From assembly GCA_903902345.1 (NCBI GenBank), contig CAIUUR010000414.1, forward strand, positions 2,353 through 66,352: a stretch of 64,000 nt of DNA, read 5' to 3'. Of this stretch, positions 38,368 to 64,000 are shown piece by piece. The DNA is from an uncultured Geobacteraceae bacterium. GTDB taxonomy: Bacteria > Desulfobacterota > Desulfuromonadia > Geobacterales > CAIOGM01. The notes under the pieces are model-generated. The model made no database searches. It saw only the letters and a program-made list of their open reading frames with translations, and was not told the origin of the DNA. The position numbers were made by a program, and so were the translations under genes. Position 1 is the stretch's first letter; each line of letters begins with the position of its first letter.

Positions 38368-39255
38368 ATGTTCGACCATCGCGATCTTTTCATGCAGTAC
38401 CTCCTGGTGGAGCGGGGGCTCTCGGGTAACACCGTGGAGGCCTATGGCAGGGACACGCTCCGGTATCTGACCTTTCTCCTGGATGAGAAGTGCCATCAAC
38501 CGGGCCAGATTACCCCCCACCTGGTGGCGTCGTTCATTGTCCGTTTGAAAGCTGAGGGGTTGAGCCCCCGAAGCCGGGCCCGGACCCTGTCGGCCCTCCG
38601 GATGTTTCACCGATTTCTTCTCGTTGAGGGGTACGCTGAGACTAATCCCACCGCGCTCCTGGAATCCCCAAAAATCGGCGGCAAGCTCCCCACGTTTCTC
38701 TCTTCCCGGGAGATAGAGCTGCTGCTGGCGGCTCCTGTCGGGGACGGTCCGACCGAGGTGAGGGATCGGGCCATGCTGGAGCTCCTCTATGCCACGGGGT
38801 TACGGGTCTCGGAGCTGGTGAACCTGACGGCCCGCACGGTGAACCTGGACGCGGGATATCTCCTGACCTTCGGCAAGGGGGGAAAAGAGCGGCTCGTTCC
38901 CCTGGGAGATGCCGCCATCGGGGCGGTCCGGCGTTATCAGCTGGAGGTTCGTCATAAGATGGAGCGGAGCGGGGGAAGGGATGAACTCTTCCTTACGCGG
39001 CTGGGGGAGGGGATGAGCCGGCAGGCGTTCTGGAACATGGTTAAAAAGCGGGCGAGTCAGGCGGGGATCAGTCGGAGCATCTCGCCGCACACACTGCGTC
39101 ACTCCTTTGCCACCCATCTCCTGGAGAACGGCGCCGACCTGAGGAGTGTCCAGATCATGCTGGGGCACGCGGACCTGTCGTCCACGCAGATCTACACCCA
39201 TGTCACCCGGGAGCGGCTCAAGCGTATTCACGAAGAATGTCATCCGAGAGGATAG
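38368..39255 (+). CDS. xerD: Tyrosine recombinase XerD
   Basis: 295 aa, ...LLVERGLSGNTVEAYGRDTLRY...; catalytic region HTLRHSFATHLLENGADLRSVQIMLGHADLSSTQIYTHV. Confidence 0.9.
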   Translation: MFDHRDLFMQYLLVERGLSGNTVEAYGRDTLRYLTFLLDEKCHQPGQITPHLVASFIVRLKAEGLSPRSRARTLSALRMFHRFLLVEGYAETNPTALLESPKIGGKLPTFLSSREIELLLAAPVGDGPTEVRDRAMLELLYATGLRVSELVNLTARTVNLDAGYLLTFGKGGKERLVPLGDAAIGAVRRYQLEVRHKMERSGGRDELFLTRLGEGMSRQAFWNMVKKRASQAGISRSISPHTLRHSFATHLLENGADLRSVQIMLGHADLSSTQIYTHVTRERLKRIHEECHPRG

Positions 39256-39268
39256 AAAGGATAGGGAA

Positions 39269-40471
39269 ATGAAATACATAGTACTCCTTGGCGACGGGAT
39301 GTCCGATGAACCGCTGGATCAGCTGGGTGGCAAGACTCCCCTCCAGGTCGCCCGGACCCCCAACATGGACTTCATGGCGAGAAACGGGCTCCTCGGCCTG
39401 GCGGCTACGGTGCCGGAGGGGCTTCCTCCGGGGAGCGACGTGGCCAATCTGTCGGTCTTCGGCTACGATCCTCGGACCTGTTACACCGGTCGCTCACCCC
39501 TGGAGGCGGCCAGCATCGGTGTGGCGCTGGCGCCCGATGACGTAGCCTTTCGGCTGAACTTCGTAACCCTGCATCCCCAGGGAAGCAAGATCTACCTGCA
39601 GGACTTTTCCGCCGGGCATATTTCCACACCGGAGGGGGGAGAGTTAATCACTGCGTTGCGGGAACAACTGGAGGACCATGAGTTCCAGTTCTTTCCCGGG
39701 GTTGGCTACCGTCACCTCATGGTCTGGCGCAAAGGCCGTTCCGCCATGAAGACGGTCCCCCCCCATGATATCACCGGGAAGAGCATTCTGGATTACCTTC
39801 CCAACGGTGAGGGGGCTGACCGAATCGTCAATCTGATGAACAGTTCCCAGATGATCCTCCACGGACATCCTCTTAACAAGAAGCGGGAGACGGAAGGTCA
39901 TCTCCCGGCCAATTCCATCTGGCTCTGGGGGCATGGGCGCCCCCCGCGAATCAGCAGCTTCCGGGAGAGCTACGGCCTTTCCGGCGCTGTCATCTCCGCA
40001 GTGGACCTGTTGAAGGGGATCGGCATCTATGCCGGACTGGACAACATCTCCGTGGAAGGGGCGACGGGATACATCGATACCAATTACCGGGGAAAAGCGG
40101 AAGCCGCTCTGGAGGCGCTCCGGAGCAGGGACTTTGTCTATCTCCACGTGGAGGCTCCCGACGAGGCGTCCCATGCCGGACGCTTGGACCACAAGATCCA
40201 GGCCATCGAGGATTTCGACGCCCAGGTGGTGGGGACGGTGCTGGAGGGGATCAAGGAGCTGGGGGAGTACCGGATTCTCTGCATGCCCGACCATCCCACC
40301 CCGGTGAGTATCATGACCCATACCTCCGACCCGGTTCCCTTCGTCATCTACGGCGGGGAGGGGGTCAAGGGGAACGGCGGGGGAGCCTATGACGAGGCGT
40401 CGGCCAAGGCCACAGGCTACTTCGTTCCGGAAGGTTTCCGGCTCATGTCGCTGATGATGGGTCGGGGTTGA
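39269..40471 (+). CDS. apgM: Cofactor-independent phosphoglycerate mutase family protein (archaeal-type iPGM; some members of this family are proposed alternative homoserine kinases)
   Basis: Track ORF 39146..40471 overlaps xerD. Trimmed to ATG 39269 (MKYIVLLGDGMSDEPLDQLGGKTPLQVA...). Family recognised from the N-terminal metal-site motif and overall length. Confidence 0.85.
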   Translation: MKYIVLLGDGMSDEPLDQLGGKTPLQVARTPNMDFMARNGLLGLAATVPEGLPPGSDVANLSVFGYDPRTCYTGRSPLEAASIGVALAPDDVAFRLNFVTLHPQGSKIYLQDFSAGHISTPEGGELITALREQLEDHEFQFFPGVGYRHLMVWRKGRSAMKTVPPHDITGKSILDYLPNGEGADRIVNLMNSSQMILHGHPLNKKRETEGHLPANSIWLWGHGRPPRISSFRESYGLSGAVISAVDLLKGIGIYAGLDNISVEGATGYIDTNYRGKAEAALEALRSRDFVYLHVEAPDEASHAGRLDHKIQAIEDFDAQVVGTVLEGIKELGEYRILCMPDHPTPVSIMTHTSDPVPFVIYGGEGVKGNGGGAYDEASAKATGYFVPEGFRLMSLMMGRG

Positions 40472-41613
40472 CAGGGAAGCAGCAGAATGATACCCCCATG
40501 AACTGTCCGACCACCTCGAATAATCCGGACTATCTGCTCCGGATGGCTGGCGACGCTTGTTTCGACCTTTCCCTCGATCCGTTGCTGCTGCTGGATGGCG
40601 CCGGACGACTGGTCCGGGCCAACGGGGCCGCCCGTCGGGAGTTCCTTTTACCAGAGGAGAGTCCGGCGCTCCCGGTAACCGAACTTTTTGCCCGATATCC
40701 CCGAATCAGGGAAGAAATAGCCGATTTTGATTCTGCGAACGATTGCGTGGTCCAAGACGGGCGGGGACGGAGTTGGCGGGTGGTGAAGAGTCTTCTCGGA
40801 CCGGAAGTGAGTCGTTTGGGGCTTCTCGTCACCTTGCGGGAGGTCACGGAGTCCGTCCGGGATGAAGAGCTGCGGGAGCGTGCGGAACGGTGGCAAGCGC
40901 TGGAGCAGGCCGGAGTCGCTACGGTGTACAAAAATCATGAAACCGGCATGGTCCATTTTTCCGACGGTTTGAAGCGGATGCTGGGGTATGCCGCTGATGA
41001 GATCGACAGCCTGCAGACCGTTGACGCCTGGCACGGGATGCTCCATCCCCATGAACTTGAGCAGATCCTCTCAACCTTTCAGGCCGATGGGAAAGAGGAG
41101 GTATCCTACACCCATGTTGTGCACAGACTGTGCTGCAAGGATGGCGGCTGGAAGTGGATACATGCACTGGGAGCGGTCATCAGGCGCGATGCCGACGGTC
41201 GTCCGTTGCGGGGTGCCGGGGTTGTCACCGACATCACCTCCCTGAGAGAGGTCTGCCGGACAACCGGCGTCTCATTTGACTCTCCCGAGGATGCAGTGAG
41301 GACCACCTGCGACACCTGGAGATTACAGGAGATCCCCCTGCAGGTGGTAACCCCCGGTGGCGCCATTCTGCGGCTCAACAGCAGAGAGTCTCAGTTTTTC
41401 GGGATGTTGGCCGATGCCGCCCCGGTCATCCTTCCCCGCATGGATGCCATCACCGGCATCTACGGCCGGTTTGACGAATCCTCCGCCCACGCCTTTGACG
41501 TCCTCATCTCCCGTCTCCGGAAGAAGGTGGAGATGCTTACCTCTGCACCCTTTCCCCTCCAGACCCTCTACGGTCTCGGCTACCTCTTCGCGGCCCGCCT
41601 CACCCGGCGCTAA
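40468..41613 (+). CDS. One-component regulator: PAS domain(s) plus C-terminal OmpR/PhoB-type winged-helix, no receiver domain
   Basis: 381 aa. Central PAS region (…HFSDGLKRMLGYAADEIDS…WHGMLHPHE…GGWKWIHALGAVIRRDADGRPLRGAGVVTDIT). C-terminus …FDVLISRLRKKVE…LQTLYGLGYLF is typical of trans_reg_C. The start is TTG 40468 (overlapping the apgM stop) or ATG 40498. Confidence 0.7.
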   Translation: MTGKQQNDTPMNCPTTSNNPDYLLRMAGDACFDLSLDPLLLLDGAGRLVRANGAARREFLLPEESPALPVTELFARYPRIREEIADFDSANDCVVQDGRGRSWRVVKSLLGPEVSRLGLLVTLREVTESVRDEELRERAERWQALEQAGVATVYKNHETGMVHFSDGLKRMLGYAADEIDSLQTVDAWHGMLHPHELEQILSTFQADGKEEVSYTHVVHRLCCKDGGWKWIHALGAVIRRDADGRPLRGAGVVTDITSLREVCRTTGVSFDSPEDAVRTTCDTWRLQEIPLQVVTPGGAILRLNSRESQFFGMLADAAPVILPRMDAITGIYGRFDESSAHAFDVLISRLRKKVEMLTSAPFPLQTLYGLGYLFAARLTRR

Positions 41614-41744
41614 GGTAAAACATCCCCCTCTGTTGTTCCACCAAGAAACAAAAAACCCCATTTGACAGGGACGTACAGGATGGACCGGTGCGACCTGGGT
41701 ATTCGTATGTCATTGTCCTTTACATCCTTTATCATAAGCATTTG

Positions 41745-41870
41745 CACGCGGAGACGCGGAGAAACCAAACAAAACAAGTTAATTGCAATAGCATCACCTT
41801 AACCTGATTGGTGTAGACTTCGTCTGTCCCAACGTCTTGATTTTCTCCGCGATCTCCGCGTCTCCGCGTG
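41745..41870 (+). repeat. Hairpin element copy A (tandem-octamer arms, unit CGCGGAGA)
   Basis: Left arm CACGCGGAGACGCGGAGAAA (41745-41764). Right arm TTTTCTCCGCGATCTCCGCGTCTCCGCGTG (41841-41870). 18 nt are perfectly complementary. The inner motifs AACC, GTCTGT and TGATTTTCTC are shared with copies at 47685 and 63584. Confidence 0.8.
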
Positions 41871-41930
41871 ATACACGTCTCTCTTTGTTGCTCCACTCCG
41901 AACTCTTCCGGCATCTTCCAAACGTAACCT

Positions 41931-41968
41931 GTGAGAATTGGTGAGAATTGGTGATAATTGGTGAGTAG
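41931..41968 (+). repeat. Tandem 10-mers upstream of the first PEP-CTERM gene
   Basis: GTGAGAATTG GTGAGAATTG GTGATAATTG GTGAGTAG, i.e. 3.8 units with one helical-turn periodicity, about 57 nt upstream of ATG 42025. Confidence 0.8.
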
Positions 41969-42024
41969 CTTTCTTCCCGGTTTTTCAGGATACTGGCCGC
42001 TCATCAATAAACCGGGAGATGCAT

Positions 42025-42798
42025 ATGAAAAAAAGCATCATGTCATTACTCACGTTGGCGGCACTCACTTTTTCCCTGACCGGTTTGGCCCAGGCAAGCG
42101 TCATAACCTACAGCGTTCAAAGTAACGGAACCATAGCCCATACGTTTAGTAATGGAAATGCTGGCACGAGACCCTCCATCGGTGACTATCTTGCCACCGA
42201 TGGAACCACGTATACGGGGGGGACAACGTTACCGAATCTTTCCGGGGCCATGACTGTTGGTGACACCTTTGAGATCGATTTCCTTGCACCTGTTGGGAAG
42301 CAGTTCACTATTAACCCGACTCCTGGTTGGACGAGAAACAGGAGTTTGGAAATATACCTCGGCCAACCGTACATAAATTCCGGTCCTTCTTCATCTCTGG
42401 GTAGTATGACCTTTGAATGGTTGAACCCGACCGGTACGGCAACACCTGTGACATCTGAATACGAAGCTTTTTACTTTGGTGCGAACCCTTCAGACATGAG
42501 AATACAACTCAATATAAGCAGTACCATTCCCTCTGATTTCAGTTTCACGGGGTTCAAAGCATCATTTGTCGTTCCCAGCGGTTTTAGCGCCACCTATACC
42601 AATTCACCGTGGCAGAGTAGCTACATAGAGTTTTATAATAGAAATTCGGCAAATGGCAGTGTCACTGACCCGGGCGTTGCCGTGACGCTGGGTAATGCTC
42701 CGGCCACCGTACCCGAACCCTCAACGTATGCCCTCCTCTGCATCAGTCTTGGCGTGGTGGGGTATGCACGGAAGAAGCATATGAAGAGTGCGGCATAA
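42025..42798 (+). CDS. Secreted PEP-CTERM-anchored protein
   Basis: Signal peptide MKKSIMSLLTLAALTFSLTGLAQA. C-terminus VPEPSTYALLCISLGVVGYARKK is a PEP-CTERM sorting signal. ATG 42025 lies 6 nt after GGGAG (the track ORF starts at 42019). Confidence 0.8.
   Translation: MKKSIMSLLTLAALTFSLTGLAQASVITYSVQSNGTIAHTFSNGNAGTRPSIGDYLATDGTTYTGGTTLPNLSGAMTVGDTFEIDFLAPVGKQFTINPTPGWTRNRSLEIYLGQPYINSGPSSSLGSMTFEWLNPTGTATPVTSEYEAFYFGANPSDMRIQLNISSTIPSDFSFTGFKASFVVPSGFSATYTNSPWQSSYIEFYNRNSANGSVTDPGVAVTLGNAPATVPEPSTYALLCISLGVVGYARKKHMKSAA
42712..42776 (+). repeat. 65-bp PEP-CTERM tail cassette, copy 1 (copy 2 at 43982-44046)
   Basis: CCCGAACCCTCAACGTATGCCCTCCTCTGCATCAGTCTTGGCGTGGTGGGGTATGCACGGAAGAA differs from the copy at 43982-44046 at 2 positions. 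The rest of the two proteins is unrelated by eye. Confidence 0.9.
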
Positions 42799-43457
42799 TG
42801 GGCAACTTGCATTCGTTCATTGACCGTCTTGGTCCAGCTGCTCCTCAAAGGAACGTAATTATAAGACTTGCCTTCACGAGGATATTCTCAGTTATTCTGA
42901 CGGTATTCTTTACGACTCTTTGCCTAACGACCGTAGCGACGGCCGCCATCAGCAGGGTTCAGTACACTACCGGCAACAGTGGCGGAGATAACGGTATCAA
43001 TGCCATTCCCCTGACATCATTAACCACAACTCCGGTAAATGGTAACACTCTGATAGCTGCTATTTCCTACTTTGGCGCTGCATCGAATATGATTTCTTCC
43101 ATCGACCAATCCGGCGTATCCTGGTCGCGGGTGACCCAGTCTCTCAATAATTTGGGTATCGGGACCGAAATCTGGTATGCCCCGAATGTTTCGGGTGCCG
43201 GTAAGGATATCACGGTCAACCTGCTTGCGTATACGGGCGCTTCTGCGGTAGTGGCCGAATACCAGGGACTCCTGACCGCAAATATGGTTGATCTCACGGC
43301 CGGAGCCACCGGTAGCACCACTCCTGCCACGACCGGTGCCACGGCAACCACTGCCCAGGCCACGGAACTCTGGTTTGCCGGGGTGGGCTTGAACAGCAGT
43401 ACCGCTACGTTGGGCACCTACACGGGGAGCGACAGCTTTTACAATATGTTGCGTTGA
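42798..43457 (+). CDS. Hypothetical membrane-anchored/secreted Thr/Ala/Gly-rich protein
   Basis: 219-aa ORF whose ATG overlaps the upstream stop (TAATG). Has an N-terminal hydrophobic helix (IFSVILTVFFTTLCLTTVATAA). No recognisable domain. Coding status rests on coupling and position only. Confidence 0.5.
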   Translation: MGNLHSFIDRLGPAAPQRNVIIRLAFTRIFSVILTVFFTTLCLTTVATAAISRVQYTTGNSGGDNGINAIPLTSLTTTPVNGNTLIAAISYFGAASNMISSIDQSGVSWSRVTQSLNNLGIGTEIWYAPNVSGAGKDITVNLLAYTGASAVVAEYQGLLTANMVDLTAGATGSTTPATTGATATTAQATELWFAGVGLNSSTATLGTYTGSDSFYNMLR

Positions 43458-43486
43458 ACATCTCTCGGCCCCAAGGAGGCTGTATC

Positions 43487-44071
43487 ATGTTTAAACAGAT
43501 CATTACCCTCTGCACTCTGTTCCTCTTTCTCGTGGCTCCCGCTGCCCGGGCGTCGGTCCTGACCTTGGACAACCAAGAGCTGTTCGGCGCTCCGGGGAAC
43601 AGCGTCGGTTGGGGCTTCTCCATCTATAACGATTCGGCTTTTGACCTCTATGTTTTGCGGGTCTACTCCGACGGCACCCTCTTTGGCACCAGTGGAGTCA
43701 GCGTCCTGGGGGCCTTTCGCGATGACATCGCCTACGAGACCAGCAATAACGGTATCATTGTGGCGTCACTGGCCACGGCAAACGGAGCCTTCCCCGTTGA
43801 CGGTTTGGCCAGCTTTGTCGTTAACTCTGGTGCTCCGGTGGGTGGGTCGGTAAACGGCAAGATCTATCTGGATTATGAACTGTATGACAGCAATGTGGAT
43901 TTTCAAGGAGCGGGGAAATTGACGGCTCAGTATAGCAATCAGGACGCCTTGGCCTCCATCACCGTTACCAGTTCCGTCGTCCCCGAACCCTCAACGTATG
44001 TCCTCCTCTGCCTCAGTCTTGGCGTGGTGGGGTATGCACGGAAGAACGTGGCGAAAAACCGAAGAGATTAA
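43487..44071 (+). CDS. Secreted PEP-CTERM-anchored protein
   Basis: Trimmed to ATG 43487 after AAGGAGG. Signal peptide MFKQIITLCTLFLFLVAPAARA. C-terminus VPEPSTYVLLCLSLGVVGYARK. Confidence 0.8.
   Translation: MFKQIITLCTLFLFLVAPAARASVLTLDNQELFGAPGNSVGWGFSIYNDSAFDLYVLRVYSDGTLFGTSGVSVLGAFRDDIAYETSNNGIIVASLATANGAFPVDGLASFVVNSGAPVGGSVNGKIYLDYELYDSNVDFQGAGKLTAQYSNQDALASITVTSSVVPEPSTYVLLCLSLGVVGYARKNVAKNRRD
43982..44046 (+). repeat. 65-bp PEP-CTERM tail cassette, copy 2
   Basis: 63/65 identical to 42712-42776. Confidence 0.9.
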
Positions 44072-44137
44072 ATGCATGAATATTCCTGTTTTCTCAAGCC
44101 GCCGGGTGAGCCGTCGAAACAAAAAACGGGAGACGGG

Positions 44138-44233
44138 AAGGGGGGAAGGGAACGGAGGGGAGCCTGCGATGAGATTTCGGCCAAGGGCGCCGGCTACTTT
44201 GTTTCGGAAGGTTTCCGGCTCATGTCACTCTGA
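44138..44233 (+). pseudogene. Displaced, decayed 3' end of the apgM-family gene (direct repeat of about 40358-40471)
   Basis: The core 44176-44229 matches 40399-40452 at 47/54 positions. It reads CDEISAKGAGYFVSEGFRLMSL*, against YDEASAKATGYFVPEGFRLMSLMMGRG* in the intact gene. The upstream part is frameshifted by a 1-nt deletion. Confidence 0.75.
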
Positions 44234-44712
44234 TGGGGCAGAGCCAGCTTTTTTTTGAGCCGGGGATCGAAGGGCAAAGGGACCGCTTCAATAAGCCGAA
44301 CCTCGGCGTAACCAGGATGTGCCGGATTCAGAACCAGATTCCACGCTTTGCCGTAGGGGAGCATGACCGAGGGGACTCTCAGGGCAACCGTCTCTTGTTG
44401 CCTGAGCCATTCCATCCCGATCCGGATGGTGGAGAGGTCCGGCGGTCGGGCGGACCACATGGCGGGGAGACGATCGGCCGTCAATTCCCGCACTGACAGG
44501 TTGTCCGGCGCTTCCAGTGTCACCAGCATGAGATCCGGGGGGGCGCCGGTTTCCGGGAAATGGGGTAGATACTCAAGGAGCGCCTGGGACGGACTTTCCG
44601 CCGTATAGAGAGCGGCCATCCCTTTCGGGTTCCATCGGCCACCGTACCGTTGAGCGCCGAAGCCGCTCACATCATGAGCAAACCGCTCCGCCGCAACCCG
44701 ATAGATGAGCAT
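44194..44712 (-). CDS. RES-domain toxin (NAD+-targeting RES family of type II TA systems)
   Basis: 172 aa, ...QRYGGRWNPKGMAALYTAESPSQALLEYL...LRVPSV... gives the R-E-S signature. Its ATGA overlaps the upstream antitoxin stop. Confidence 0.85.
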   Translation of the reverse strand: MLIYRVAAERFAHDVSGFGAQRYGGRWNPKGMAALYTAESPSQALLEYLPHFPETGAPPDLMLVTLEAPDNLSVRELTADRLPAMWSARPPDLSTIRIGMEWLRQQETVALRVPSVMLPYGKAWNLVLNPAHPGYAEVRLIEAVPLPFDPRLKKKLALPHQSDMSRKPSETK

Positions 44713-45194
44713 CAGATGAAGACCCCCTGTTCGATCCTCCCCAACTCGTCCAACACCAGCTCCATGCCGGGAATGGTGTCCAGCAATGTTGTCGGTGAAA
44801 TGCCACCCAAGGCGTAATTGGGACTTTTCAGCCAGACGGCGGCCTGAACTTCATCTTGAAAAACTTCTAAGGCGCGACAGTAGACCCGGATCAACTGAGC
44901 CACCCGGTCGGAGAGATGGGGGCTGAGGTTTGATCCGGCTTCGATGTGACGCTGCAGGGTTCGGGGCGTGGTGTGCAGCCACCCCGCCAGATCCTTTTGG
45001 GGAACGTTCATCTTTCCTGCCAAGGCGGCTACAGCCCCTCCGGGGAGACCTTTCCTGATACGGTCAATTCGGGCGGCTTCGGGGCCGGTTCCCCAGGAAC
45101 AGCACTCCCCCGCAGTTCTCCCCTCCCCGCAGAGTAGCGCCATGAGGGAATCATTCTCCGTTATTGTCAAAAGATTGGTCTTATTCGAGTTCAT
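44712..45194 (-). CDS. Xre-type antitoxin with C-terminal RES-toxin-binding domain (DUF2384/MbcA-ParS like)
   Basis: Trimmed to ATG 45194 after AAGGAGG. HTH region (…QKDLAGWLHTTPRTLQRH…). C-terminus …AVWLKSPNYALGGISPTTLLDTIPGMELVLDELGRIEQGVF is typical of the family. Confidence 0.85.
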   Translation of the reverse strand: MNSNKTNLLTITENDSLMALLCGEGRTAGECCSWGTGPEAARIDRIRKGLPGGAVAALAGKMNVPQKDLAGWLHTTPRTLQRHIEAGSNLSPHLSDRVAQLIRVYCRALEVFQDEVQAAVWLKSPNYALGGISPTTLLDTIPGMELVLDELGRIEQGVFI

Positions 45195-45216
45195 GGCAGC
45201 CTCCTTGGTCAAGTTA

Positions 45217-45245
45217 ATTGTCGCACGGTCAGCGACAAATAGCAA
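45217..45245 (-). promoter_or_regulatory. Candidate TA-operon promoter with overlapping palindromic operator
   Basis: On the - strand: TTGCTA, 17-nt spacer, GACAAT. The perfect inverted repeat TTGTCGC-N7-GCGACAA (45218-45238) spans the spacer and -10 region. Confidence 0.4.
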
Positions 45246-45361
45246 CTGCTGCCGAGAAGATCTTTTTGCGCATTGGATGAAAACTCAAGGGTAGGACAAG
45301 GGTGAAACGCTCAAATAGTAGGGGGGCGTTCATGCTCACGGTGTAAAGAAATCCGAACTCC

Positions 45362-45961
45362 TCAGCGGTTGGACGAGGCGATGTAAACCGTGAAGCTCTG
45401 GCCGTTCCGGGTGAACCGGATCTGGTCCTGTCGGATCTCCGTGATCGTGGCCCCGGCCACCAGAGCTCCTTCCCCCAGGAGGGCGCCGTTGACCACGGCC
45501 CGCCGTGCGCCGTGCTCTTCCAGCCAGGCTATGCCGGTCACCTGGAAGTCGGCGGGAGGTGGTGTTGTCGTTTCCTTCAGCGCGCTTCTGGTCCGTTTCA
45601 GCTCGGGCGGGGGGCGTTTTGCCGGAGCGCGAAGGGGGGGATCTGCCGGCAGTTCAGGTACTGCCGCCGCCATCGGTAAAGGGGAGGGGAGGGAAGGCTC
45701 AGGGGGGGGGGGACTCTCCGCTCTGGCCTGAACTTGTGGGGGCGCCACGGGCGCGGGCTTGCTCGAGAGTCGCCCCATGACCCCCAGGGTTGCACCGACG
45801 GCAAGAGTGATGGCTCCCAGGAACAACAGCGGCAGCCGCCACGGGGGGGGAGGGGGTGCGCTCTTTCTCCCCGTGACCGCCGGACGGAGGTCAACTTTCC
45901 GGCCGAGGCGGGTCGCCTTCTCCTGCTCCAGTTTTTTCAGGGCGTCGAGGATGAGGCTCAT
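45362..45961 (-). CDS. GspB/ExeB-like type II secretion accessory protein
   Basis: 199 aa with MSLILDALKKLEQEK N-terminus, one TM helix and a Pro/Ala-rich linker. The C-terminal motif …VTGIAW…AVVNG…GA…I…IRFT… resembles the T2SS-B domain. ATGA overlap with the upstream ATPase gene. Confidence 0.7.
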   Translation of the reverse strand: MSLILDALKKLEQEKATRLGRKVDLRPAVTGRKSAPPPPPWRLPLLFLGAITLAVGATLGVMGRLSSKPAPVAPPQVQARAESPPPPEPSLPSPLPMAAAVPELPADPPLRAPAKRPPPELKRTRSALKETTTPPPADFQVTGIAWLEEHGARRAVVNGALLGEGALVAGATITEIRQDQIRFTRNGQSFTVYIASSNR

Positions 45962-47610
45962 CTTTTTTCTCCACCGTCATGAACCAGGGACGGGTTTGTG
46001 AACGCCTTACTTGTCCGGTAGAGGAGAAACAGGGTCTGCCGACCGATGGTTCCGTCCGGGCTGACCCCTTTGGCATTCTGAAATGACTTGACGGCGTCAA
46101 GGGTCTGTTTGTCCAGAACACCGGAGAGCGCCCCCTTGTAGACTCCGGCCTCCTGGAGGAGAGTCTGCAGTCGGGTAACCGTTTTTCCCCGTGATCCTGT
46201 CTTCATGCCGGGAGGGATGTCCAGATGATTCTTCCAGGGGAGATACGCTCTGCCGGACCAGATCCCTTCCAGTTCCGCCCCGCTGAGGCTCGTCCGCCCG
46301 GCAAGGGGGGGAGTGATGGTGTAGCGTCCATTGTCCGTACCCAACAGGGCCAGGTAGTGCCTGCCGGTGACGCCGGGAAGGGCCAGTTCCAGAATTGCGG
46401 GGGAATTGTACCGGAGGAGCCCCCCCAGGTTTCCACTGAAACGCAAGGTTTCCACTCCCCGTTCACGGGCCAGGACCTCCGGGAGGTCCGGCTGGGGCGA
46501 TGCCCAGGTTGCTGGAGGGACGTGCCAGCTTTCCGCCAGGGCATTGAATACGGCCAGGGCATTATCTTTCTCGCTTTCCGCCGCCATCGCTCGTGTCACG
46601 CTTTGGATGGAGAGAGGAATCGGAGTCGGCCGGCTGAGGTGACCCTTGGGGCTCTGGGGATAGGGTGAAATTGTTGCCACAGTTCTCTTCTCCGGTTGCA
46701 GTGCCTGCTCCCAGGTGAAGTAGAGGAGTCCTCCCCCCAGGAGCGCCGCGGCAAGAAGCGCCAGGGCTACGGCAGGTATCCGGCGGGGAGTTCCGTTTCC
46801 CGATGTGAGGTGGAGATCGGTGATGGCGGTTCTGGCCATTGCTCCGGTGAGGGGAATCTTTCCTCGGGTGTATCCCAGAAGAAGTGCCCGGTCGCAGGCC
46901 AGGTTGATCAGCCGGGGGAGCCCGCCGGAGAAACGATAGATCCGATGGAGTGCCCTTGGCGTGAAAAGGTTTGAATCTGCGGCTCCGGCCACCTGAATTC
47001 GGTGGGCGATGTAGTCGCGGGTGTCGGCGAGATTCATGGGACGGAGATGATAACTGACACCGACCCGTTGCCCCAATTGGCGCAATTCCGGACGGGCAAG
47101 GAGATCTCGCAGCTCCGGTTGTCCCACGAGCACGATCTGGATCAGCTTGTCCTGCTCCGTTTCCAGATTGGAGATGAGGCGGATCTGTTCCAGCACCGTG
47201 CTCCCCAGGTTCTGTGCCTCGTCCACCACGAGTACCACCGTTCGCCCGGCTCCGTTTTCCTCCAGGAGAAAACGATTGAGATCGCCTAGCAGGTCCGCCG
47301 TATCGGTATGTTCCACCGGGAGTCCGTACTCCCGATTGATGGATTGCATGAGTCCGAGAGAGGAGAGGCAGGGATTGAAGATGAGGGCGGTCCGGTACTG
47401 ATCGGGAGAGAGTTGTCCCAGAAGAGTCCGGATCACGGTGGTCTTCCCCGCGCCGATCTCGCCGGTAAGGGCGATGAATCCCACATGGTTGTCGATGCCG
47501 TAGAGGAGGTGGGCAAAGGCCTCATTGTGGTGGGCGCTGAGGAAGATGAACCCCGGGTCGGGGGTTATGTTGAACGGTTTTTCTCGAAATCCGTAGTAGT
47601 CGCAGTACAT
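45958..47610 (-). CDS. ExeA/GspA-like AAA ATPase with TM segment and C-terminal peptidoglycan-binding domain
   Basis: Track ORF starts at TTG 47634; ATG 47610 (MYCDYYGFREKPFNITPDP) is preferred. Walker A GEIGAGKTT and Walker B VLVVDEAQ. C-terminus …LQTLLQEAGVYKGALSGVLDKQTLDAVKSFQNAKGVSPDGTIGRQT is PG_binding_1-like. Confidence 0.8.
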   Translation of the reverse strand: MYCDYYGFREKPFNITPDPGFIFLSAHHNEAFAHLLYGIDNHVGFIALTGEIGAGKTTVIRTLLGQLSPDQYRTALIFNPCLSSLGLMQSINREYGLPVEHTDTADLLGDLNRFLLEENGAGRTVVLVVDEAQNLGSTVLEQIRLISNLETEQDKLIQIVLVGQPELRDLLARPELRQLGQRVGVSYHLRPMNLADTRDYIAHRIQVAGAADSNLFTPRALHRIYRFSGGLPRLINLACDRALLLGYTRGKIPLTGAMARTAITDLHLTSGNGTPRRIPAVALALLAAALLGGGLLYFTWEQALQPEKRTVATISPYPQSPKGHLSRPTPIPLSIQSVTRAMAAESEKDNALAVFNALAESWHVPPATWASPQPDLPEVLARERGVETLRFSGNLGGLLRYNSPAILELALPGVTGRHYLALLGTDNGRYTITPPLAGRTSLSGAELEGIWSGRAYLPWKNHLDIPPGMKTGSRGKTVTRLQTLLQEAGVYKGALSGVLDKQTLDAVKSFQNAKGVSPDGTIGRQTLFLLYRTSKAFTNPSLVHDGGEKR

Positions 47611-47684
47611 GAAAACCTTAAGAAATCGGGACAAGCCGGATCTAAAAAAAGATTGCCGGCGCTACGAAGAGCAAACACCTTTTT

Positions 47685-47810
47685 ACCGCAAAGACGCAAA
47701 GGACGCAAAGGAACCGCTAAGAAAAACCAACAGCCTTGGGGTAAACCGGAACGGGTTCGGTCTGTGTCGATTCCTTTTCGTTTTCTTCGCGTACTTTGCG
47801 TCTTTGCGGT
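47685..47810 (+). repeat. Hairpin element copy B (unit CGCAAAGA/CGCAAAGGA)
   Basis: Left arm ACCGCAAAGACGCAAAGGACGCAAAGGAACC (47685-47715). Right arm …CGCGTACTTTGCGTCTTTGCGGT (to 47810). 17 nt are perfectly complementary. By my coordinates it has the same 126-bp length as copy A. Confidence 0.8.
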
Positions 47811-47834
47811 TCAAAGGTTCGTCTTGTGTTGTAT

Positions 47835-49229
47835 TTAGTACCGGTACTGCTCCGTCTTGTACGGCCCTTCCTGGGGGACGCCGATGTAGGCGGCCTGCTC
47901 GGGGGTCAGCAAGGAAAGCTGGGCGTTAAGTTTTTTTAGCTGAAGTCGGGCCACCTTCTCATCAAGATGTTTGGGGAGAGTGTAGACCCCCACCGGATAT
48001 CTCCCCGGATTGGCGAAGATCTCCATCTGGGCGATGGTCTGGTTGGCGAAGGAGGAGGACATGACATAGCTGGGGTGGCCGGTGCCGCAGCCCAGATTGA
48101 CGAGCCGCCCCTTGGCCAGGAGGATAATCCGTTTGCCGTCGGGGAAGATGACATGGTCCACCTGGGGCTTGATCTCTTCCCACTGGTACGCTTCCAGGGC
48201 CGCCACTTCAATCTCGTTGTCGAAGTGGCCGATGTTGCAAACGATGGCCTGATCTTTCATTTTCGCCATGTGGTCATGGGTGATAACGTGGTAGTTCCCC
48301 GTGCAGGTGACGAAGATGTCGGCCTTGTCGGCGGCATATTCCATGGTCACCACCCGGTATCCTTCCATGGCGGCCTGGAGGGCACAGATGGGGTCGACCT
48401 CTGTCACCCAGACCTGGGCGGAGAGAGCTCGCATGGCCTGGGCCGATCCTTTCCCCACGTCGCCGTAGCCGCAGATCAGGGCCACTTTGCCGGCAATCAT
48501 GACGTCGGTGGCCCGTTTGATGCCGTCCACCAGGGACTCGCGGCAGCCGTAGAGGTTGTCGAACTTGGACTTGGTTACCGAATCGTTCACATTGATGGCC
48601 GGGAAGCGGAGCTCGCCCCGCTCATGCATCTGGTAAAGGCGGTGCACCCCGGTGGTGGTCTCCTCGGTGACTCCCTGAATATGAGCGATGCGGGTGGAGT
48701 ACCAGGTGGGGTCAATGGCCAGCTTGGCCTTGATGGCGGCGAAGAGGATGGTCTCCTCTTCGGAACCGGGGTTGGCCAGGACGCTGAGGTCGGTTTCTGC
48801 TCTGGTCCCCAGGTGAAGAAGGAGGGTTGCGTCGCCGCCGTCATCCAGAATCATGTTGGAGAAGCCGCCATCGGGCCACTCAAAGATCCGGTGGGTGTAA
48901 TCCCAGTATTCCACCAAGCTCTCTCCCTTCACGGCGAAGACCGCCGTGCCGCCGTCGGCGATGGCGGCGGCGGCATGGTCCTGGGTGGAGAAGATGTTGC
49001 AGGAGGCCCAGCGGACTTCCGCTCCCAGAGCCTTGAGGGTTTCGATGAGGACTGCGGTCTGGATGGTCATGTGAAGGGAGCCGGTGATTCGCGCCCCCTT
49101 CAGTGTCTGGGCGGCGGCGAACTCTTCGCGGATGGCCATGAGCCCCGGCATCTCGGTCTCGGCGATCCTGATCTCTTTGTTTCCCCAGGCGGCCAGGGAA
49201 AGGTCGGCGACGATGAAATCCTGTGACAT
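47835..49229 (-). CDS. ahcY: Adenosylhomocysteinase
   Basis: Track ORF extends to 49451. Trimmed to ATG 49229 ([31 protein letters not shown]…) after AAGGAGAAA, giving 464 aa. NAD-binding motif GYGDVGKG. Confidence 0.96.
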
Positions 49230-49272
49230 CTGTTTCTCCTTGTGTGTTGTGGTGATGATTTTGATGGATGGC

Positions 49273-49521
49273 TTAGGGGCGATCCTTGCCTTCGCCCGGT
49301 TTGTGATTTCCCGGTTTGTTAAAATCAGAGCGAAGACAAGATTCGCCCCTACGGTCGGACAAGACGATGATGCCATGGAAGTGGTTCGGCATGAGCCTAA
49401 AGGCGTCCAATTCCATCCCCGGAAACCGTTCCGGCAGTGACAGCCAAACATTATCGGCTCCCGCCCCTTCCTTTCGTTCCGCCTCGTTCCCTCTAACCTC
49501 GCACTGCGTTCCTATTATCGA
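49273..49521 (-). pseudogene. Remnant of an HUH (Y1, RAYT/IS200-like) transposase-family gene
   Basis: The - strand frame reads …[65 protein letters not shown] is the HUH motif in its usual context (…LD.F..MPNH.HGII…). The N-terminal part and the C-terminal Tyr-bearing part are missing. Confidence 0.6.
49274..49352. repeat. REP-like long palindrome inside the transposase remnant
   Basis: TAGGGGCGATCCTTGCCTTCGC (49274-49295) faces GCGAAGACAAGATTCGCCCCTAC (49330-49352). In either frame it encodes the GANLVFA / RA.ARIAP type peptides commonly produced by such palindromes. Confidence 0.6.
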
Positions 49522-56111: not shown

Positions 56112-56168
56112 GGTGCCTCCCGTCGTTGATTGCGGTTGGATGAGCCCCGGAAGGGGGTTGAAACGGAC

Positions 56169-56197
56169 GAAGGCCGGATGGTTTCCATCCGGCCTTC
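56169..56197 (-). terminator. Perfect 13-bp hairpin downstream of metK
   Basis: GAAGGCCGGATGG-TTT-CCATCCGGCCTTC. The trailing U-run on the - strand is weak (GUCCGUUUC). Confidence 0.55.
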
Positions 56198-56203
56198 ATC
56201 CGT

Positions 56204-56238
56204 AATTATCAATTTTCAATTATCAACTGTCAATTGCC
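56204..56238. repeat. Five-unit heptanucleotide tract (AAYTNYC) abutting the metK stop
   Basis: AATTATC AATTTTC AATTATC AACTGTC AATTGCC. Confidence 0.7.
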
Positions 56239-62140: not shown

Positions 62141-63214
62141 ATGAACCACCAACCACCCCAGGAGTCCGAGTCACCAGTCACCAGTCACCAGTCACTGTCT
62201 CCGAGTCACCTGTCACCGGTCACTGCCTCCGACTCCCCACTCCCACAGTCTCCGAGTCACCAGTCACCAGTCACCAGTCACGGTCTTCCGCTTCCCCGCA
62301 TCATCATCATCCAGGGTCCCACCGCCACCGGCAAGAGCGAGCTGGCGGCCCGTCTTGCCGAGGAGTTTAACGGTGAGATCGTCGGAGCCGATTCCCTGCA
62401 GCTCTATCGGGGGATGGAGATCGGCTCGGCTGCACCCGGTCCGGAGCTCAGGGGGCGAGCGCCACACCACCTCATCGGAATTCTTGACCCGGACGCTCCT
62501 TTTACTGCTGCCGATTATGCCCGGGAGGCAGGGGAGGTCATAGCAGGGATACTTCGTCGGGGGGGGATTCCCTTTGTTACCGGGGGGACCGGTCTCTACC
62601 TCCGGGCGCTTCTGGGGGGGATGATAGAGTCGCCGGCAGGGAACGACGGCCTCCGTCGTGAACTTGCCCAACGGGGTGAGCTCCATGGATTTGCGTCCCT
62701 CCTGGAGGAGCTGAAGCAGGTTGATCCGGAAACCGGAGCGCGGCTTCATCCAAACGACCGGCTGCGGATCGTCCGGGCGCTGGAAGTTTGCCGAGCCACC
62801 GGTGTTCCCTTCTCACAGATGACCCGTGAGCACGGCTTCAGGGAAGAGCGGTACTCCGTCCTGAAGGTCGGGATCACCCGGGAGCGTTCCCAGTTGTACC
62901 GGCGAGTGGAAGAGCGGGTAGAGGGAATGCTGGTCGACGGATTGGTGGATGAGGTCAGGGGGCTGTTGGCACGTGGATATTCTCCGGATCTCAAGAGCAT
63001 GCGCGCCATCGGCTACAAGGAGATTTGCCGCCATCTCTCCGGCGAAATAACTCTTCATGAGGCGGCTGAGCTGATCAAGCGGGACACCCGGCGCTACGTG
63101 AAGCGGCAACAGACATGGTTTTTTAGGGACAGCGCAACGAAATGGTTTGAATATCCTGAAAATTTTGCTAGTATTCGGTATGCTGTTGAAGAATTCATCG
63201 TCTCGCCGCGGTAA
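62141..63214 (+). CDS. miaA: tRNA dimethylallyltransferase with ~50-aa repeat-encoded N-terminal extension
   Basis: 357 aa. The P-loop GPTATGKS begins about residue 59. There is no in-frame ATG/GTG/TTG between ATG 62141 and the P-loop. The miaA-hfq order is conserved. Confidence 0.88.
   Translation: MNHQPPQESESPVTSHQSLSPSHLSPVTASDSPLPQSPSHQSPVTSHGLPLPRIIIIQGPTATGKSELAARLAEEFNGEIVGADSLQLYRGMEIGSAAPGPELRGRAPHHLIGILDPDAPFTAADYAREAGEVIAGILRRGGIPFVTGGTGLYLRALLGGMIESPAGNDGLRRELAQRGELHGFASLLEELKQVDPETGARLHPNDRLRIVRALEVCRATGVPFSQMTREHGFREERYSVLKVGITRERSQLYRRVEERVEGMLVDGLVDEVRGLLARGYSPDLKSMRAIGYKEICRHLSGEITLHEAAELIKRDTRRYVKRQQTWFFRDSATKWFEYPENFASIRYAVEEFIVSPR
62165..62286 (+). repeat. Heptanucleotide repeats (GTCACCA and variants) in two blocks inside the miaA 5' end
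   Basis: Block 1 is TCCGAGTCACCAGTCACCAGTCACCAGTCACTGTCTCCGAGTCACCTGTCACCGGTCACTG. Block 2 is GTCTCCGAGTCACCAGTCACCAGTCACCAGTCACGG. About 11 GTCAC-containing units in total. Confidence 0.85.
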
Positions 63215-63498: not shown

Positions 63499-63512
63499 AT
63501 CGTTGGAACAGG

Positions 63513-63563
63513 CGGCAGAGGTGAGTCGGGAATGGTGACACTTCCGCCCTCTGCCGTTTTTTT
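63513..63563 (+). terminator. hfq rho-independent terminator
   Basis: CGGCAGAGG (63513-63521) pairs with CCTCTGCCG (63548-63556), followed by TTTTTTT. Confidence 0.75.
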
Positions 63564-63583: not shown

Positions 63584-63736
63584 ACCACGGAGACACGGAG
63601 ACACAGAGGAAAACCCTCATTGCCGCAGATTGTTATAGCTCTTCTGTCTGTTGGACTGCAAAGCTGATCTTTTTTGGTGAAAACTGCGCATCTGATTTTC
63701 TCAGTGAATTCCTCCGTGTCTCAGTGCCTCCGTGGT
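63584..63736 (+). repeat. Hairpin element copy C (unit CACGGAGA)
   Basis: Left arm ACCACGGAGACACGGAGACACAGAGGA (63584-63610) and right arm TCCTCCGTGTCTCAGTGCCTCCGTGGT (63710-63736) are 24/27 complementary. Inner AAAACC, TGTCTGT and TGATTTTCTC motifs as in copies A and B. Confidence 0.8.
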
Positions 63737-63785: not shown

Positions 63786-64000
63786 ATGAAACGTGGTTTG
63801 CTCATCAGTGAGGTTCTTTCCGGCGCCCTTGCCCAGGAGTTGGAGCTGGAACCGGGGGACCGGCTCGTGGCGGTCAACGGTCAACCGTTGCGTGATCTCA
63901 TCGACTATGAGTACCACATCTCCGACGATCCGCTCACCCTGGAGGTCCTGCGCGGTTGCGGCGAGACGTGGGAGATCGAGGTGGAACGGGACGAGGGGGA
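63786..64000 (+). CDS. PDZ-domain protein, N-terminal part (partial; runs off window end)
   Basis: ATG 63786, open to the window end: MKRGLLISEVLSGALAQELELEPGDRLVAVNGQPLRDLIDYEYHI… is PDZ-like. It resembles the N-terminus of PDZ-radical-SAM-related (DUF512/COG1625) proteins, but too little sequence is present to be sure. Confidence 0.5.
   Translation, partial: MKRGLLISEVLSGALAQELELEPGDRLVAVNGQPLRDLIDYEYHISDDPLTLEVLRGCGETWEIEVERDEG

Follow-up and report, generated by a model that had tools for sequence, protein, structure and literature searches.

Inverted arrays of tandem octamers form a family of intergenic DNA palindromes in an uncultured Geobacteraceae bacterium and in many bacterial phyla

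What kind of element carries two mirrored arms, each made of a short word in tandem, with a different word in each copy? The question is raised by a stretch of 64,000 nt from an uncultured member of the Geobacteraceae (contig CAIUUR010000414.1; "the window" below means this whole stretch of analysed DNA), in which three intergenic elements, here called copies A, B and C, share such an architecture. A sequence-only reading of the window, made without database searches, had described them as hairpins maintained by selection and had suggested either a mobile palindrome or a structured RNA family. Our analysis shows that they belong to a large and widely distributed family, and leads us to regard the octamer elements, with a probability of roughly 0.55, as proliferating, non-autonomous intergenic DNA palindromes, similar to repetitive extragenic palindromes (REPs) and bacterial interspersed mosaic elements (BIMEs) or to MITEs (miniature transposable elements with inverted repeats), whose arms would be protein-recognition arrays and whose reader would not be encoded nearby.

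The three copies are seen by several independent signals. Inverted repeats were taken within 250 nt (n=19 in the window) and tandem units were called with Tandem Repeats Finder; among the 19 inverted repeats, copies B, C and A rank as I1, I2 and I5 respectively. Copy A occupies 41745-41870, its left arm (41745-41762, +) being CA followed by two units of CGCGGAGA (tandem repeat 41746-41762, period 8) and its right arm (41844-41870, +) three units of TCTCCGCG, one of them 9 nt long, followed by TG (tandem repeat 41844-41869, period 8, 3.1 copies); between them lies an AT-rich, unconserved core of 81 nt (41763-41843) without promoter or terminator consensus. Positions 41745-41762 are complementary to 41853-41870 at 18 of 18 positions with 90 nt between; two units on the left face an array of three on the right. 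Copy B is an extended imperfect palindrome over 47677-47818, a 48-nt inverted repeat at 81% (47677-47724 against 47771-47818) which contains a perfect run of 17 nt; its left arm (47685-47712, +) reads AC, CGCAAAGA, CGCAAAGGA, CGCAAAGGA (tandem repeat 47687-47712, period 9), and its right arm (47784-47810, +) reads TCTTCGCG, TACTTTGCG, TCTTTGCG and GT (tandem repeat 47784-47808). Copy C, at 63584-63736, has a left arm (63584-63611, +) of AC, CACGGAGA, CACGGAGA, CACAGAGG and AA (tandem repeat 63586-63608, period 8) and a decayed right arm (63709-63736, +) of TTCCTCCGTG, TCTCAGTG, CCTCCGTG and GT, the two pairing over 28 nt at 89%. The arms stand 74-111 nt apart. The two-arm pattern matches exactly A, B and C in the window and nothing in 100 shuffles, and a looser single-arm search allowing up to 2 mismatches finds no fourth copy there. 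All three fold strongly on either strand equally well (-48 to -59 kcal/mol, z from -3.1 to -6.8). The description of three real hairpin elements with tandem 8-9-mer arms is thus borne out, as is the statement that each right arm carries the change of its own left arm, since the unit is CGCGGAGA in A, CGCAAAG(G)A in B and CACGGAGA in C and each is mirrored in its own copy. The peptides HHGDTETQRK and LRVSVPPW, which had been called spurious products of the arms, are indeed direct translations of the arms of copy C.

The inside of the elements does not bear out the common architecture that had been proposed for it. Local alignment of the cores of A, B and C, in either orientation, gives scores of 13-19, where shuffled sequence has a mean of 12.6-13.7 (sd about 2.2) and reaches 22-23 at most. 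The AACC on the left and the TTTTCT on the right, taken as landmarks of the core, mirror each other and form a weak inward continuation of the arms, while GTCTGT belongs to arm units that have decayed. In essence the elements are thus symmetric, and the common orientation claimed for the three copies has no measurable meaning, as they show no polarity. Neither a sigma-70-like promoter nor an intrinsic-terminator consensus is found inside A, B or C by scanning. A search of the cores by eye for sigma-54 and sigma-70 promoters likewise gave nothing consistent, and that candidate was set aside.

Beyond the window, we scanned one genome per species with the pattern AGACRCRRAG-N(85-115)-CTYYGYGTCTYYGYG, which fixes C, C, A and G together with purines in two units of each arm and leaves third units and unit position 8 free. 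The scan finds at least 120 loci in at least 20 bacterial phyla. About 17 matches are expected by chance in the whole genome collection, as calculated at equal base frequencies, and 58 of the 80 matches listed match on both strands and are therefore unlike chance matches. Among the matches listed, the hosts include Planctomycetota, Acidobacteriota, Verrucomicrobiota, Lentisphaerota, Chlamydiota, Alpha-, Beta-, Gamma- and Zetaproteobacteria, Desulfobacterota, Myxococcota, Cyanobacteriota, Bacteroidota, Chloroflexota, Gemmatimonadota, Nitrospirota, Nitrospinota, Spirochaetota, Bacillota and several candidate phyla; no archaeon is among them. The same pattern finds 66 further loci in viral contigs, several of which are gene-transfer-agent (GTA) or prophage clusters of alphaproteobacterial kind. 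Common to all loci is an arm rule which, read inward, is (TTCAC)(CRCRRAGR)2-4, with the outer end consensus TT(C/T)A(C/A). Within 400 nt, 470 of 597 arms find a pairing arm, and many of the others have a decayed partner like that of copy C. Three units on both sides is the commonest arrangement (63 elements), followed by (2,3) or (3,2) in 39 and (2,2) in 32, which upholds the earlier remark on unequal unit numbers between arms, as seen in A itself. The median spacing of the arms is 93 nt. The cores are about 60-135 nt long and lineage-specific, being AT-richer than their own locus in 192 of 217 elements, and a search for a core motif shared across phyla returns only A/T-rich words.

Two local arrangements are worth noting. 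Among the viral-contig loci, some of which carry GTA or phage structural genes, many cores (in L150, L153, L165, L167, L171 and L177) contain a terminator-like GC hairpin, for example GGCGGCTTTGCCGCC, and then a T run merging into the right arm. In a Flavobacterium locus (L055:1060-1780), left-type arms (TTTTCTCGCAAAGACGCAGAGGCGCTAAG) occur four times within a tandem unit of about 157-184 nt, with a decayed right-type arm after the last unit only, unlike the usual pairing.

It is of central interest what the matching of the two arms means. The variable unit positions are 2, 4, 5 and 8; the left arm has purines there and the right arm pyrimidines. Identity at these positions reaches 0.80 when the two arms come from one element, compared with 0.53 when they come from different elements. 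We counted covariation in 82 gap-free elements from many loci (alignment A5) against 500 shuffles. In the true register 95.5% of cells are paired and 198 show a change in both arms; the covariation score is 0.380, which none of the 500 shuffles reaches. Sliding the right arm by one whole unit gives a register incompatible with the true one, and there 94.0% of cells are still paired, with 177 double-sided changes and a score of 0.348, a value that the shuffles again fail to reach. At the single positions, identity between the arms is no higher than that between neighbouring units of a single arm (0.93 vs 0.93, 0.80 vs 0.83, 0.87 vs 0.93); only unit position 8 gives a small register-specific signal (0.59 with the true partner, 0.53 with the slid one and 0.42 within the arm), and this is what true mirror copies would give. 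As covariation is almost as strong after sliding by one unit, it shows that each element has one unit "flavour", and not that single base pairs are compensated. The covariation which the sequence-only reading had counted on is accordingly significant against shuffles and lacks, apart from position 8, the register specificity that selection for the hairpin would call for, so that the inference from compensatory change to such selection is unsupported. Mismatches tell the same: G.T and A.C number 171 and 153 overall, and 72 and 66 when oriented by the gene strand. If an RNA stem were under selection, A.C would be expected to be rare on the transcribed strand; no such avoidance is seen, and the symmetry is one of DNA. 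Aside from this, position 8 tends to alternate between A and G in neighbouring units, with an identity of 0.42 compared with 0.50 between unrelated arms, which hints at a super-period of 16 nt.

In genomes, the elements behave as multi-copy intergenic repeats lying in short spaces between genes. One example is locus L005, where four copies, 83% identical through the core and hence paralogous, lie in four successive gaps of a row of pilin and ABC-transporter genes. With gene calls that are crude, mechanical open reading frames (ORFs) throughout the loci examined, co-directional genes flank 40 elements, convergent genes 19 and divergent genes 13; this preference for co-directional and convergent placement is the REP/BIME pattern and unlike that of a promoter element. 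Nested or composite copies are found in three loci: L104 is a clean nest, with outer CGCAAAG arms enclosing inner CACGGAG arms around a loop of 9 nt, L075 has stacked arms, and L070 is treated below. The flanking genes have no common function. An association with PEP-CTERM or polysaccharide loci, to which copy A and the kds gene rows of Geobacter bemidjiensis might point, was considered and dropped as unsupported, the gene contexts elsewhere being mixed. Upstream of the GTA portal gene, the copies of three sphingomonads differ both in flavour and in core and are uninformative on vertical conservation.

Comparison with relatives shows places where copies of the window have no counterpart. One protein flanking the window copies is 100% identical to a database entry, and the next relatives stand at about 75%. 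Copy A lies between a gene for a regulator with PAS and Trans_reg_C (OmpR-type) domains (40468-41613, +) and a PEP-CTERM protein gene (42019-42798, +), and copy B between ahcY (47835-49229, -) and a GspA-like gene with AAA_22 and PG_binding domains (45958-47634, -). In the relatives synteny is kept around both, and the gene content differs at both places: a polysaccharide deacetylase gene stands where the window has the regulator, copy A, two PEP-CTERM genes and a RES-Xre toxin-antitoxin pair, and a 2.35-kb gene for a fatty-acid cis/trans isomerase (CTI) stands in the place of copy B. Measured against the relative's locus L123, the variable segments are 41614-45361 and 47635-47834, which places the elements at the borders of such segments. 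No octamer arm is present in 10.6 kb of syntenic DNA of a relative at 75% protein identity.

Taken together, these results support the part of the sequence-only reading which named a REPIN- or MITE-like palindromic repeat family as the kind of element (a REPIN being an inverted doublet of REPs), as the elements are multi-copy, have inverted arms and lie between genes. The mechanism that we propose is the following. Two inverted arrays of 2-4 tandem octamers would bracket an AT-rich, lineage-specific core; the invariant C, C, A and G, with freedom only among purines at the other four positions, would make each arm an array of protein sub-sites, and the protein which reads or moves the elements would be encoded elsewhere than beside them. 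Dispersal would then be due to mobility. The single flavour of each element may go back to descent from distinct master copies, with slippage and arm-to-arm conversion homogenising the tandem units, and the potential to form a hairpin would be a by-product of the inverted arms. Once co-transcribed, the stem could still affect the mRNA, for instance by serving as an RNase III site or by holding up 3' exonucleases, though the data above do not speak for selection on such a role.

Several observations weigh against this interpretation. Part of the arm rule is imposed by the search pattern, which prescribes C, C, A and G and the purines for two units of each arm, and a rule of 8 nt kept in more than 20 phyla might, alternatively, be owed to a function for the host. 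Target-site duplications are at the level of chance, flanking direct repeats of 2-9 nt being no commoner than with permuted flanks; a classical DDE-type MITE is therefore unlikely, and the element boundaries cannot be fixed. No mobilising enzyme is found adjacent to the elements, no version carrying a gene between matching arms exists in the loci examined, no transposase family recurs among 1290 clustered flanking ORFs, and the 1.5 Mb around 186 elements other than those of the window contains no HUH motif. For the window copies there is no clean pair of filled and empty sites: contigs of the same strain show no difference, the nearest relative is too distant and has other genes at both places, and copy B stands where relatives have a gene (CTI) and does not interrupt a conserved spacer. 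In L070:366-636, the left arms GGAG, AGAG and GAAG are followed by right arms AGAG, GAAG and GGAG, so that the inner two arm pairs are crossed and not nested, which a simple single insertion cannot produce.

The search for a mobiliser gave some further results of its own. The recurrent flanking clusters with Pfam annotation are GTA or phage structural genes, ABC-F ATPases and a sigma-54 activator, and of ten cluster representatives scanned, four have no Pfam match and none is a transposase. No parent insertion sequence with the same ends is found in the approximately 1.5 Mb of loci examined. Two loci, L149 and L157, were candidates for an autonomous parent, having arm pairs 0.7-2.5 kb apart, and were rejected: they enclose ordinary phage genes (ParB-like, terminase neighbours) and no transposase, and these genes lie between two separate elements.

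The same evidence admits a bolder form of the proposal, which we put forward tentatively and would not ourselves expect to hold, namely that the elements constitute an orphan super-family of mobile DNA throughout Bacteria, with the C-R-C-R-R-A-G-R arrays read in more than 20 phyla by a single widespread enzyme that is neither a REP-associated tyrosine transposase (RAYT) nor a nearby DDE transposase, and with arms rebuilt or homogenised in each round of copying, which would explain the single flavour. Repeat families that keep one sequence rule across many phyla are rare, the main precedents being the GTAG and CGTC REPs. If the reader is truly a new kind of mobilising enzyme, the family is of real interest; otherwise it is ordinary selfish DNA. 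In either case the arm rule provides a one-line masking pattern for genome annotation, useful since the elements yield spurious ORFs such as the HHGDTETQRK and LRVSV.. peptides, and a handle for finding the reader protein, and the elements may mark variable regions.

Of the explanations that do without mobility, the one which survives best, unlikely as we consider it, takes the arms as paired binding arrays, or operators, for a chromosomal architectural or regulatory protein around a bendable AT-rich core, with a role in nucleoid shaping or gene regulation. The recurrence of four invariant positions per 8 bp across phyla and the AT-rich cores would fit it. Ribbon-helix-helix proteins read tandem sub-sites of 7-8 bp, as MetJ does with its metbox (AGACGTCT in 2-5 copies), ParG and omega being further examples. 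The ends of the elements (GGTTCACG) bear some resemblance to a parS half-site and AGACG to a MetJ box, resemblances that carry no weight in the argument. The same idea underlay the first annotation of the Geobacter repeats, described as putative global regulator or IHF/HU binding sites (PMC2700814). However, the IHF consensus WATCAANNNNTTR has 2 matches in 217 cores compared with 0.8 expected; it is thus not enriched between the arms, and the elements do not qualify as IHF-binding palindromic units of the RIP or BIME-1 type. The placement inside operons and between convergent genes, and not at divergent promoters, the mixed functions of the flanking genes and the lack of a sigma-70 promoter inside the elements also speak against operators. 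Moreover, cores are conserved among the copies of one genome, which an operator would not need, and copies are absent from the syntenic DNA of relatives while being present in phage or GTA contigs.

That the elements act as RNA is improbable in our judgement. According to this explanation they would be a structured small RNA family or a cis-acting mRNA hairpin (a stabiliser, RNase III site or terminator) whose stem is selected on the transcript, for which speak the strong predicted stems, the many copies inside operons and thus co-transcribed, a variation by transitions only, which offers a path through G.U, and the terminator-like hairpin with T run in some sphingomonad cores. Rfam, on the other hand, has no match over the window at the gathering score, and relaxing the threshold to E up to 10 brings none on the elements either. 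Folding is equally good for the two strands, the gene strand has no excess of G.U over A.C, the covariation is not register-specific, cores are unconserved between lineages, and the window copies contain no promoter or terminator consensus. The structured-RNA alternative of the sequence-only reading is thus unsupported. Where the elements are annotated at all, in Geobacter, they are labelled as putative regulator sites.

Still less can be said for the suggestion that the elements are REPINs, the doublets reportedly described by Bertels and Rainey, mobilised by a RAYT, an HUH tyrosine transposase, of which a remnant was thought to lie at 49.3 kb; we rate it as very doubtful. A fragment is indeed present at 49230-49470 (-), 1.5 kb from copy B; it ends in a stop and has an HUH/Y1-like motif, and its only NCBIfam match is REP_Tyr_transpos (E=0.088), at 12.7 bits far below the cut-off of 80 bits. 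The lack of target-site duplications would fit single-strand HUH transposition, and inverted doublets are the architecture of REPINs. The fragment itself is nevertheless set among GTAG-type hairpins, as two GTAG-tagged REP-type hairpins (GTAGGGGCGAATCTTGTCTTCGC.. and GGGGCGATCCTTGCCTTCGCCC; GTAGGGGCGA...TCGCCC) at 49274-49351 overlap it, and a classical GTAG REP doublet of the same type (GTAGGGGCGACCCACCGGGTCGCCC ... inverted copy; GTAGGGGCGAC..GTCGCCC) stands in the gap between T2SSB and deacetylase genes of the arm-less relative (L123:5230-5305). The RAYT remnant therefore goes with classical REPs and not with the octamer arms. A single octamer arm is a direct tandem repeat and not a hairpin tagged with GTAG or CGTC, and around the other 186 elements, where several cases of a RAYT gene flanked by the same repeats (a REPtron) would be expected, neither such a gene nor an HUH motif is found. 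Of the earlier claim, the HUH-like motif stands and the link to the octamer elements does not.

Integron attC-like recombination sites or remnants of gene-cassette arrays can hardly be at issue, for although the elements resemble attC sites in size and in being imperfect palindromes around a variable centre, the L005 copies separate single genes at steps of about 1.1 kb and some ends read ..TAAC / GTTA.., most copies lack the R'' RYYYAAC and R' GTTRRRY boxes (their outer consensus being TT(C/T)A(C/A)), attC sites are without tandem octamers, the L005 genes form an ordinary pilin and ABC-transporter row, and no integrase is adjacent to A, B or C, the one tyrosine-recombinase gene (Phage_int_SAM_1 + Phage_integrase, 38368-39255), about 2.5 kb from copy A, being syntenic in arm-less relatives. 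Alphaproteobacteria, which are rich in octamer elements, are moreover reported to lack integrons.

The window has further repeats near the elements and elsewhere. Directly downstream of the PAS and OmpR-type winged-helix regulator gene, 60 nt after copy A and 54 nt before the start of the PEP-CTERM gene, a 10-bp unit GTGAGAATTG is repeated 3.5 times (41931-41965), and inside it is a sigma-70-like match, GTGAGA-16-GATAAT. OmpR-type regulators bind direct repeats at a spacing of about 10 bp. Copy C is preceded by a terminator-like hairpin (63512-63563) with a run of T7, whose stem arms GGCAGAGG and CCTCTGCC resemble a single octamer unit, and is followed by an ORF starting at 63787 (+). Inside the mechanical ORF 62141-63214 lies a heptamer array, AGTCACC x16 (alternatively a period of 28 nt), at 62169-62281, which recalls the intragenic heptanucleotide repeat families that Aklujkar describes for Geobacter metallireducens. 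Another junction of a hairpin with a tandem repeat is at 56163-56235, where a near-perfect 19-bp hairpin (95%, 3-nt loop) is directly followed by AATTATC x4.6.

How, finally, do the elements compare with known systems? An analogy, and only that, is offered by the inverted terminal repeat (ITR) of adeno-associated virus (AAV) with its (GAGC)4 element and by the iterons of circular Rep-encoding single-stranded DNA (CRESS) viruses, in which short tandem Rep-binding repeats stand at hairpin ends. Here as there, tandem sub-sites in the stem of a long palindrome would form a platform for a multimeric binding protein; the viral systems differ in having a defined nick site and an adjacent Rep gene, to which nothing comparable is found for the octamer elements.

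With REPINs and BIMEs the elements have much in common, since both are intergenic multi-copy inverted doublets which can form one long hairpin, are enriched between co-directional or convergent genes and are without target-site duplications (Di Nocera et al. 2013, PMC3733652). Both also occur in several phyla and can cluster, and the CGTC REPs are likewise without a dedicated transposase (PMC3733652). The REP unit itself, in contrast, is a small hairpin with a stem of 5-13 bp, a loop of 2-20 and an unpaired GTAG or CGTC tag (PMC3733652), whereas the octamer arm is a direct tandem array unable to fold alone, with no tag, a spacer of about 90 nt and no RAYT association, so that the self-complementary hairpin of 20-40 nt plus tag, by which a REP unit is recognised, is not to be found in it.

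The bacterial MITEs, such as Chunjie of Geobacter uraniireducens, Nezha and Correia, share with the octamer elements a length of about 120-160 bp, terminal inverted repeats, an AT-rich interior and the absence of coding (Delihas 2011, PMC3184786). Many copies, stable folds and insertion into operons without destroying them are further features in common (PMC3184786). The inverted ends, small size, non-coding nature and copy number of the octamer elements are thus those of MITEs, and the target-site duplication is not. MITEs have such duplications (9 bp in Chunjie) and, as a rule, a parent insertion sequence whose ends they share (PMC3184786); the octamer elements show no duplication above chance, and no parent turned up in the approximately 1.5 Mb of loci examined. 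In addition, MITE families are genus-restricted while the octamer arm rule spans phyla. Chunjie is here compared by its description.

The closest counterparts are on record in Geobacter itself. The sequence-only reading had named a match to a known repeat as something that would refute it, and two genome papers supply such a match. In Aklujkar et al. 2009 (PMC2700814), the "class 2" sites of G. metallireducens are 21 pairs of three tandem repeats TCTCCGTS[Y] on opposite strands at variable distance, said to be unique to that species and guessed to be IHF/HU binding or putative global regulator sites, and one pair, Gmet_I216A/B, is without a Geobacter sulfurreducens counterpart. In the part of their table covered here, 13 pairs have both flanks listed, of which 10 are co-directional, including pdh E1 alpha/beta and ntrY/ntrX, 3 convergent and none divergent (PMC2700814). 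For G. bemidjiensis, the "Octanucleotide repeats" Gbem_R8001-R8034 have the consensus YTT[TCTTTGCG]3TGAGG (Aklujkar et al. 2010, PMC2996986), making roughly 17 annotated pairs, and many of these copies occupy consecutive gaps along the pyrG-kdsA-kdsD-kdsC row as well as guaB-guaA (PMC2996986). The TCTCCGTS[Y] flavour is that of copies A and C and the TCTTTGCG flavour that of copy B: A has TCTCCGCG three times, C has units of TCTCCGTG type and B has TCTTTGCG units, and in placement, too, the window copies are opposite-strand pairs at variable distance between genes. Among the literature searched by sequence string and by descriptive terms, only these two papers mention the elements, and their descriptions stay at the level of annotation and give no known function. 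Our elements and the Geobacter sites are therefore the same objects, three tandem 8-9-mers, paired, intergenic, and mostly 3' of genes or inside operons, while the cross-phylum spread, the general CRCRRAGR rule and the one-flavour-per-element behaviour went unrecognised in those papers. As objects the octamer elements are already on record, uncharacterised, and the new part is their breadth across bacterial phyla.

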